A stretch of 64,000 bases of DNA from the NCBI RefSeq assembly GCF_003018255.1, contig NZ_CP027440.1. One strand, 5' to 3'. The notes beneath the pieces were generated by a model, which was not told the DNA's origin, did no database searches, and saw only the letters and a program-made list of their open reading frames with translations. Both the position numbers and the translations under genes were made by a program. Origin of the DNA: Escherichia coli. GTDB lineage: Bacteria > Pseudomonadota > Gammaproteobacteria > Enterobacterales > Enterobacteriaceae. Shown piece after piece: positions 54,573-55,440 of this stretch (within the stretch, counting starts at the first letter, position 1; every line of letters starts with the position of its first letter).

Positions 54573-55067
54573 CTATTTAAGACATTCCTGCAAATCAGCC
54601 AATGTTGCCATCAGTATCATAGAATCGACAGGCGATGGTTCAAACCCCACTCGCAGATAAAACTCACGGGCCTGGTCTGATAACGCATGGACCAACATTC
54701 CGCGAATACCAATGACTTCAGCCGCCTGTAGTACTCGTAGACCGGCATCTCTGACCATCGCACGACCGATGCCCTGACCCTGTAATGATTTATCTATTGC
54801 CAGACGACCAAGTACTACAACAGGGATCGGTTCTGGCATATTTCGGCGAAATCGTCCTGTCGCGACATACGTTTCAACGGCGCTGGAAGCAAGCGAATAA
54901 TATGCCAAAACGTTGCTATACGTATCACAGCTAACAAATGTACGTGATGCGCCGGCAAGCTGATTTTTTAGGGCTCTCTGCTTTAGCCAGTTATCCATCG
55001 TTTCTACTCCCGAGCAAAAAGAGGTGAATTGATGCCTTGCCATGAGTGGCTCGGGGGCCTGAATCAT
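54573..55067 (-). CDS. GNAT-family acetyltransferase toxin of a type II toxin-antitoxin pair (TacT/AtaT/ItaT-like)
   Basis: 164-aa product from ATG at 55067 ([14 protein letters not shown]...); contains the GNAT acetyl-CoA motif [16 protein letters not shown] shared with tRNA-acetylating toxins; start overlaps the upstream antitoxin stop as ATGA. Confidence 0.8.
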
Positions 55068-55357
55068 TTTTTTTGCTCCCACGGCGCGGGTGTTTGCATG
55101 GTTTTGCGTAATGCAGCATTGGGCGCGGGGGGCTGATCCAGACGATTCAAAAATAGCTGATAATCATCAGAATCGATCCTGAAAATTCTCTGCTCAATGA
55201 GCGCCTCTTCAGCTGCGGCTCTGGCGGCCTCAAGGACAAATTCGGTGCGATTTTTTCCTCGGGCTTTAGCGGCCCGGTCAATAAGATCGCGTTCTGCGGG
55301 TTTTATGCGCAAGTTTAAAGATTCGCGCCTGGCTGGAATGTTATTGGCTGCTGGCAT
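55064..55357 (-). CDS. DUF1778 (ribbon-helix-helix) antitoxin partner of the GNAT toxin (TacA/AtaR-like)
   Basis: 97-aa product from ATG at 55357 ([30 protein letters not shown]...), AAGGA Shine-Dalgarno 7 nt upstream; RHH-like N-terminus; positioned immediately 5' of the toxin. Confidence 0.75.
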
Positions 55358-55384
55358 AAATATATCCTTCGGCTTTGCGTGGAT

Positions 55385-55425
55385 GATAATTATACAGTAC
55401 ATGTAACGCTAATGTCATTACAGCA
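55385..55425 (-). promoter_or_regulatory. Putative promoter/operator of the toxin-antitoxin operon
   Basis: Minus strand: ATGACA - 18 nt - TATAAT, with palindromes TAATGACATTA (over the -35) and TACATGTA (in the spacer). Confidence 0.4.
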
Positions 55426-55440
55426 AAGATGCTACCCCTG

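Follow-up and report, generated by a model that had tools for sequence, protein, structure and literature searches.

A probable TacAT-type toxin-antitoxin operon, closest to Salmonella TacA2-TacT2, forms an old polymorphism between flgL and rne in Escherichia coli

Introduction

Among toxins linked to persistence, those of the GNAT/DUF1778 type are comparatively well understood. Three modules of this type, AtaRT, AtaRT2 and ItaRT, have been characterised in Escherichia coli. The subject of this study is a further pair of genes, located between flgL and rne in 64,000 nucleotides of E. coli contig NZ_CP027440.1 (RefSeq assembly GCF_003018255.1). This whole stretch is called the window, and positions are counted from its first nucleotide. 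The closest characterised relative of the pair is TacA2-TacT2 of Salmonella, which has the same two-gene architecture and the same protein lengths, 97 amino acids for the antitoxin and 163-164 for the toxin.

Several related modules provide a frame for comparison. In Salmonella, recognition between antitoxin and toxin is pair-specific, according to the part of PMC9431474 that refers to Grabe et al. KacT2 of Klebsiella pneumoniae is reported to be 88% identical to Salmonella TacT2 (PMC9431474) and therefore belongs to the TacT2 subgroup. In E. coli O157:H7, ataRT corresponds to ECs4307-4308, and the AtaT2 toxin of a second module, ECs_4261/4262, is specific for Gly-tRNAGly (PMC7470980). AtaRT, KacAT and AtaRT2 form complexes of two toxin and four antitoxin molecules, and a model of the family was taken from PMC5959882, PMC7470980, PMC9177977 and PMC9431474. 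A listing of characterised GNAT toxins from 2022 counts eight and does not include the toxin of the window (PMC9431474). A literature search by RefSeq protein accession returned no paper mentioning either protein of the pair.

Results

A gene pair related to TacA2-TacT2

The locus was interpreted as a chromosomal TacAT-type type II toxin-antitoxin operon that is nearest to Salmonella TacA2-TacT2, represents an old polymorphism and acts by a mechanism of the Gly-tRNAGly type. The probability of this interpretation was estimated at about 0.82. The ORF (open reading frame) list and the sequence agreed on two overlapping genes on the minus strand, which were the only genes in the interval (Table 1). 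The flanking genes converge on them, with flgL on the plus strand ending at 54478 and the stop codon of rne on the minus strand ending at 55491. The antitoxin gene comes first and its stop codon overlaps the start codon of the toxin gene by four nucleotides, ATGA. An initial annotation of the window, made from the letters alone, had described this layout including the overlap, and both were found as described. In RefSeq, the proteins were already labelled 'GNAT family N-acetyltransferase' and 'type II toxin-antitoxin system TacA family antitoxin'.

Profile searches assigned both proteins. The antitoxin matched TacA1/DUF1778 (PF08681) with an E-value of 1.5e-26 and RHH_1 weakly, and the toxin matched the GNAT families PF13508 (7e-9), PF13673 (5.7e-7) and PF00583 (7e-6). 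The initial annotation had proposed a GNAT toxin of 164 amino acids and a DUF1778 antitoxin of 97 amino acids, and had named the profile search as a possible refutation; both families were recovered. In the PDB, residues 1-162 of the toxin matched chain A of 7ak7 with 7.7e-76 and residues 1-97 of the antitoxin matched chain C with 1.4e-45. These values, together with the TacA1 match, lie far beyond what chance would produce. Chain A of 7ak7 was identical to the Salmonella enterica protein P0062 except for Y137F and one further residue. From the sequence comparison with Salmonella P0062 and L053, we take 7ak7 to be TacA2-TacT2; its chain A is presumably the catalytically inactive TacT2 of the Helaine laboratory. 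Aligned without gaps, the toxin was 75% identical to Salmonella TacT2 (120/161) and the antitoxin was 81% identical to the antitoxin adjoining it, TacA2 (79/97).

Other members of the family were more distant. The PDB relatives of the toxin were TacT (~4e-44), AtaT2 (7f37, 1.2e-41), KacT (4e-20), AtaT (~1e-16) and TacT3 (2e-15), and ItaT was absent from the matches at E <= 0.01. The structure 7f37 was recognised as AtaT2 by the identity of the partner chain with ECs_4261. Over the aligned parts, ECs_4261/4262 of strain Sakai were identical to chains C and B of 7f37, and the deposited names were generic. Salmonella TacA-TacT (5fvj, 7ak8) and Klebsiella KacT2 and KacT4 share the family and the presumed mechanism with the window pair. 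AtaR-AtaT, KacA-KacT, ItaR-ItaT of E. coli HS and TacA3-TacT3 share the Pfam families, the operon layout and the N-acetylation of aminoacyl-tRNA as the expected activity, with toxins that are distant in sequence. AtaR2-AtaT2 is likewise a chromosomal GNAT/DUF1778 type II module of E. coli and falls into the same broad clade, but identity was only 44% for the toxin and 41% for the antitoxin. In Sakai, its two genes form a unit flanked by malT and rtcA (L058:8093-8847), unlike the pair of the window. An assignment of the window pair to AtaRT, AtaRT2 or ItaRT was rejected, as identities or E-values were too distant for AtaRT2 and AtaRT, ItaT was absent from the PDB matches and AtaRT2 resides at a different locus.

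No family for either protein was present in NCBIfam, and neither protein matched the anti-phage defence models of PADLOC at E <= 0.01. The Rfam search over 54300-55700 gave only matches at chance level, far under the gathering scores, and thus no known RNA element. Altogether, the pair almost certainly belongs to the GNAT/DUF1778 (TacAT-type) type II toxin-antitoxin family, as judged by homology. It is an uncharacterised member of this known family within the TacT2 subgroup.

Residues required for activity in TacT2 were also found in the toxin of the window. The acetyl-CoA loop QGQGIG is intact (Q96-G-Q-G99-I-G101, pattern Q/R-x-x-G-x-G/A), and the acetyl-CoA signature of 16 residues quoted in the initial annotation was located at residues 86-101. 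K29, R88 and Y137 are retained in the ungapped alignment with TacT2. The substitutions Y137F and R88G abolish the toxicity of TacT2, and K29 in place of E29 distinguishes the potent TacT2 of S. Enteritidis from the weak form of S. Typhimurium (Rycroft et al. 2018, PMC5959882).

The latter case raises the alternative of an attenuated or non-toxic remnant of the same family, a domesticated acetyltransferase with its regulator. S. Typhimurium TacT2 is one residue off the toxic S. Enteritidis form and showed no visible growth effect (PMC5959882). Apparently disabled toxins also occurred in E. coli. Variant P0003, with 71 member sequences, carries G101D in the QGQGIG loop, and a toxin of 141 amino acids lacking the first 23 residues was represented by P0006 (189 members) and P0123 (43 contigs). 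These probably disabled variants suggest a recurrent inactivation of the toxin. The allele of the window, however, is the intact and common form, with exactly this toxin and this antitoxin each present on at least 1,000 public contigs. It keeps K29, the residue of the active form, as well as R88, Y137 and the loop. The ratio of nonsynonymous to synonymous substitution (dN/dS) relative to the genes of Escherichia sp. E4385, an unclassified, non-coli strain, was 0.09 for the antitoxin and 0.12 for the toxin, so that both genes are under purifying selection. The antitoxin and the candidate operator are kept as well, as would be expected for a toxin that is still dangerous. Attenuation of the window pair was thus considered unlikely.

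Table 1. Coordinates of the accessory segment, the gene pair and the associated signals in the window.
Feature	Position	Strand	Description	Basis
Accessory segment	~54558..55438	.	881 bp in place of an unrelated 63-bp spacer of K-12 and CFT073	Empty-site alignments
Toxin gene	54573..55067	-	164 amino acids, ATG 55067-55065, TAG 54575-54573; predicted GNAT aminoacyl-tRNA N-acetyltransferase, TacT2-like	
Antitoxin gene	55064..55357	-	97 amino acids, ATG 55357-55355, TGA 55066-55064; predicted DUF1778/TacA ribbon-helix-helix protein, TacA2-like	
Shine-Dalgarno-like GAAGGA	55365..55370	-	7 nt 5' of the antitoxin ATG	Read from sequence
Predicted sigma-70-type promoter	55389..55418	-	-35 ATGACA 55418-55413, 18-nt spacer, -10 TATAAT 55394-55389	
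Candidate operator	55403..55421	-	19-bp imperfect inverted repeat GTAATGACATTAGCGTTAC overlapping the -35 hexamer	
Candidate operator region, constituent stretches			GTAATGAC and GCGTTAC	
flgL intrinsic terminator	54520..54548	+	Flank shared by occupied and empty alleles, outside the cassette	
rne intrinsic terminator	55449..55472	-	Shared flank, upstream of the cassette promoter	

The choice of start codons was examined for both genes. The mechanical ORF list contained longer versions, a toxin of 169 amino acids with a GTG start and an antitoxin of 112 amino acids with an upstream ATG. The forms of 164 and 97 amino acids were preferred because the alignments with TacT2 and TacA2 begin at their residue 1 and because RefSeq annotates these lengths. 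The toxin ATG is preceded by GGGAG. The longer antitoxin start is probably wrong, since nothing in TacA2 corresponds to the added residues and their codons would include the -10 box. Some GenBank annotations (P0138, P0143) carry this antitoxin of 112 amino acids, starting at the ATG at 55402 with the extension covering 55358-55402.

A run of eight A residues lies at the antitoxin/toxin junction at 55064-55075 (GAGCAAAAAAAATGA), and only six are present in Escherichia sp. E4385. Two singleton fusions of antitoxin and toxin with 260 amino acids (P0001, P0004) came from run-level assemblies. Produced by frameshifts close to the junction, these fusions probably reflect errors of sequencing.

Predicted target and mechanism

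Target specificity had been regarded as unknown from sequence alone in the initial annotation. This view was revised, as the homology to TacT2 and AtaT2 permits a prediction. TacT, TacT2, TacT3, AtaT2, GmvT and the further toxins tested from clade D acetylate Gly-tRNAGly almost exclusively in vivo (Bikmetov et al., PMC9177977), and AtaT, KacT and ItaT are broad in their in vivo specificity or biased towards Ile (PMC9177977). The toxin of the window is nearest to TacT2, TacT and AtaT2 and far from the broad-specificity toxins AtaT and KacT. By analogy, Gly-tRNAGly is therefore its likely target.

A functional TacAT-type module with another main target, either Ile- or Leu-tRNA, a broad set of tRNAs or a substrate other than tRNA, was considered as an alternative. 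TacT toxins were broader in vitro, where Gly was acetylated together with Ile and Leu and as many as 13 amino acids were found acetylated (PMC5959882). The broad in vivo activity of ItaT, AtaT and KacT and the 25% of residues that differ between the window toxin and TacT2 point in the same direction. On the other side, every tested member of the clade of TacT, TacT2, TacT3, AtaT2 and GmvT was of the Gly-specific type in vivo, and the window toxin is placed well inside this group by similarity. A different main target was regarded as unlikely.

For the TacAT-type operon with Gly-tRNAGly as the predicted target, the following mechanism is proposed by analogy to the described family members. A sigma-70 promoter just past the rne terminator would drive a bicistronic message encoding first the antitoxin and then the toxin, with the toxin presumably translated by coupling through the ATGA overlap. 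The N-terminal ribbon-helix-helix domain of the antitoxin would dimerise, bind the 19-bp repeat over the -35 box and repress the operon. Its C-terminal part would mask the toxin's active site in a non-toxic complex, and a complex of the type toxin2:antitoxin4 may sequester the toxin. Loss of the antitoxin would free the toxin dimer, which is expected to transfer the acetyl group of acetyl-CoA to the alpha-amine of a charged elongator tRNA. This would leave ribosomes stalled at Gly codons and bring growth to a halt. The arrest may be reversible, with peptidyl-tRNA hydrolase (Pth) recycling the blocked tRNA.

Distribution and age of the cassette

The accessory nature of the pair was analysed by alignment with empty sites. 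The flgL-rne intergenic region without the genes comprises ~195 bp in K-12 derivatives and in CFT073. The initial annotation had stated that the pair is absent from K-12, and the locus alignment with the K-12 derivative ER1821R bore this out with an interval of 195 bp lacking both genes. Its end coordinate, 55440, also coincides with the right boundary of the segment at ~55438. Both terminators, of flgL and of rne, are kept on either side of the segment. The spacer of 63 bp in the empty allele was nearly identical between CFT073 and K-12. It was also tested as a decayed cassette, but sensitive blastn matched only the shared flanks and chance words of 9-11 nt. Occupied and empty sites represent an allele replacement, which could have arisen by insertion or by deletion.

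The intergenic flanks were found in 5,425 of 5,426 complete E. coli genomes, and the full segment was present in 685 (12.6%). Searching for the cassette alone yielded 686 genomes, each with a single copy that was always chromosomal; identity was at least 99% in 680. Every copy examined was located between flgL and rne. Carriers included the prototype enteropathogenic E. coli (EPEC) strain E2348/69 and avian pathogenic E. coli (APEC) strains. E2348/69 (L056), which has the cassette, and CFT073 (L059:43534-47867), which is empty, encode an identical FlgL, WP_001212764.1. Close relatives therefore differ in which allele they carry, and both alleles are old.

One genome, E. coli HS-02 (L057, NZ_CP172818.1), was considered as a carrier of a decayed copy and rejected. 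Both ends of its cassette were identical to the sequence of the window and the central ~600 bp (about 1590-2200) consisted of homopolymer runs of A, T, G and C, which look like an artefact of assembly or polishing and not like gene decay. RefSeq annotates the remainder as a partial GNAT pseudogene.

The cassette was found at the same site in Escherichia sp. E4385. Nucleotide identity was 93% in the cassette region, 92% in rne, 90% in flgL and 86% in flgK. The synonymous divergence (dS) of the cassette, 0.15-0.20, was below that of the flanks, 0.30-0.71. The cassette is thus a long-term resident of the flgL-rne site in the genus, though not necessarily by strict vertical co-inheritance with its flanks.

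Beyond Escherichia, homologues at 65-79% identity were present in many Enterobacterales. Homologues of the same architecture ranged across alpha-, beta- and gamma-proteobacteria and Bryobacterales, with 65-71% identity in the three proteobacterial classes. The scan of GTDB species representatives yielded 49 loci, none from Escherichia or Salmonella, and TacT2 of Salmonella did not fit its peptide patterns; the gene contexts in Salmonella and E4385 came from exact-protein look-ups. Among plasmids in PLSDB, 2,708 records matched at E <= 1e-20, of which 87 were in the range of 60-80% identity. The latter originated from Salmonella, Klebsiella, Zymomonas, Xanthomonas and rhizobia. The family is mobile on long timescales.

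These data bear on the alternative that the pair is recent cargo of a mobile element, be it an insertion sequence, a transposon, an integron cassette, a prophage or an integrated plasmid. The frequency of GNAT/DUF1778 genes on plasmids, the homologues scattered over three classes of proteobacteria, the different locus of the Salmonella copy and the low dS of the cassette relative to the flanks would fit such an origin. The interval between flgL and rne, however, contained no mobility genes, and the segment boundaries showed neither terminal repeats, direct or inverted, nor a target-site duplication. The sole inverted repeat reported in the boundary repeat search was the rne terminator, and the short strings common to both junctions, AAATAG and TCTTTG, are too short to interpret. 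The GC content of 0.48-0.50 is unremarkable for E. coli. One copy per genome, at one constant site in every case examined, and an occupied allele in a non-coli Escherichia with an identity near that of rne and flgL, also speak against recent arrival. Just two PLSDB records had at least 99% identity, CP088669.1 (730,445 bp) and NZ_CP141089.1 (4,938,057 bp). Both contained the chromosomal flgL-rne cassette, and judged by their sizes they look like chromosomal sequences misfiled as plasmids. Matches in the phage collection were limited to one Salmonella draft contig at 75% and distant ones, so that neither collection placed the window allele on a genuine plasmid or phage. Recent mobile cargo was hence rated as improbable. 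In Escherichia, presence or absence of the cassette forms an old polymorphism at a single fixed chromosomal site.

Promoter and candidate operator

The predicted promoter of the operon matched 11 of 12 consensus positions and was the best site in the region. It starts ~30 nt past the rne terminator and was the single promoter-like site 5' of the antitoxin gene. The promoter block was kept in Escherichia sp. E4385 and upstream of Salmonella tacA2, where the homologous block including the operator reads GTAATGACATCTGCGTTAC (GTAATGACAT..GCGTTAC...TGTATA), though the two cassettes occupy unrelated loci.

The inverted repeat that overlaps the -35 hexamer alone matched GTAAYG-N5-9-CRTTAC within the 64 kb of the window, where 0.06 matches would be expected by chance. 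For a survey of homologous promoters, 120 bp 5' of the antitoxin start were extracted from 47 homologous loci (among L004-L055). In 43 of them, a 19-mer with at most four mismatches from GTAATGACANTGTCATTAC (perfect palindrome GTAATGACA-N-TGTCATTAC) was located 37-75 nt before the antitoxin start codon, and just 1 of the 1,670 control windows taken at these loci carried it. Positions T2, G6, A7, C8, C14 and C19 were invariant in the 43 loci, which range from Enterobacteriaceae to rhizobia, Burkholderiales and Bryobacterales. This comparative evidence is strong, and the repeat is likely the operator of the ribbon-helix-helix antitoxin. We know of no published operator for the TacA2-like subfamily.

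Discussion

The pair between flgL and rne resembles TacA2-TacT2 in architecture, in functional residues and in its upstream block. Salmonella tacAT2, in contrast, adjoins a PAP2 gene and dsbD-cutA-dcuA. With these different neighbourhoods, the E. coli pair is not a positional orthologue of tacAT2. New in this study are the boundaries of the segment, its frequency in the population, the non-synteny with Salmonella tacAT2, the ancient polymorphism and the conserved candidate operator.

Several observations weigh against the interpretation as an active, Gly-tRNAGly-directed operon of old standing. Toxicity, neutralisation, acetylation and DNA binding are all predicted by homology. The weakening of S. 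Typhimurium TacT2 by a single substitution means that small changes can silence such toxins, and a quarter of the residues differ between the window toxin and TacT2. The in vitro breadth of TacT toxins and the lower dS of the cassette, both described above, count on the same side. In enterobacterial copies the repeat has a degenerate right arm, with six of nine positions matching the consensus half-site. Finally, the minus strand at 54549-54572, 3' of the toxin stop, contained no T-run after the flgL hairpin, and the operon transcript might run antisense into flgL.

A more speculative proposal combines an ancient cassette, maintained by selection for a benefit to its lineages, with a toxin whose target or potency has drifted away from that of TacT2. 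The benefit could be abortive infection against phages or antibiotic persistence in EPEC, APEC and extraintestinal strains. This proposal was considered unlikely. If true, the deeply conserved 19-bp operator would define a separately regulated TacAT2 subfamily extending from Enterobacteriaceae to Acidobacteria.

As a TacAT-type operon, the window pair would be the fourth chromosomal module of this kind in E. coli and the direct counterpart of Salmonella TacAT2. The understanding of the family remains unchanged, and the pair fills in a member. Its carriage by ~13% of genomes including E2348/69, and its absence from K-12, CFT073 and the other sampled empty-site genomes, provide natural contrasts, close to isogenic, for tests of persistence or phage resistance. 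The conserved candidate operator offers a concrete handle on the regulation of the subfamily.

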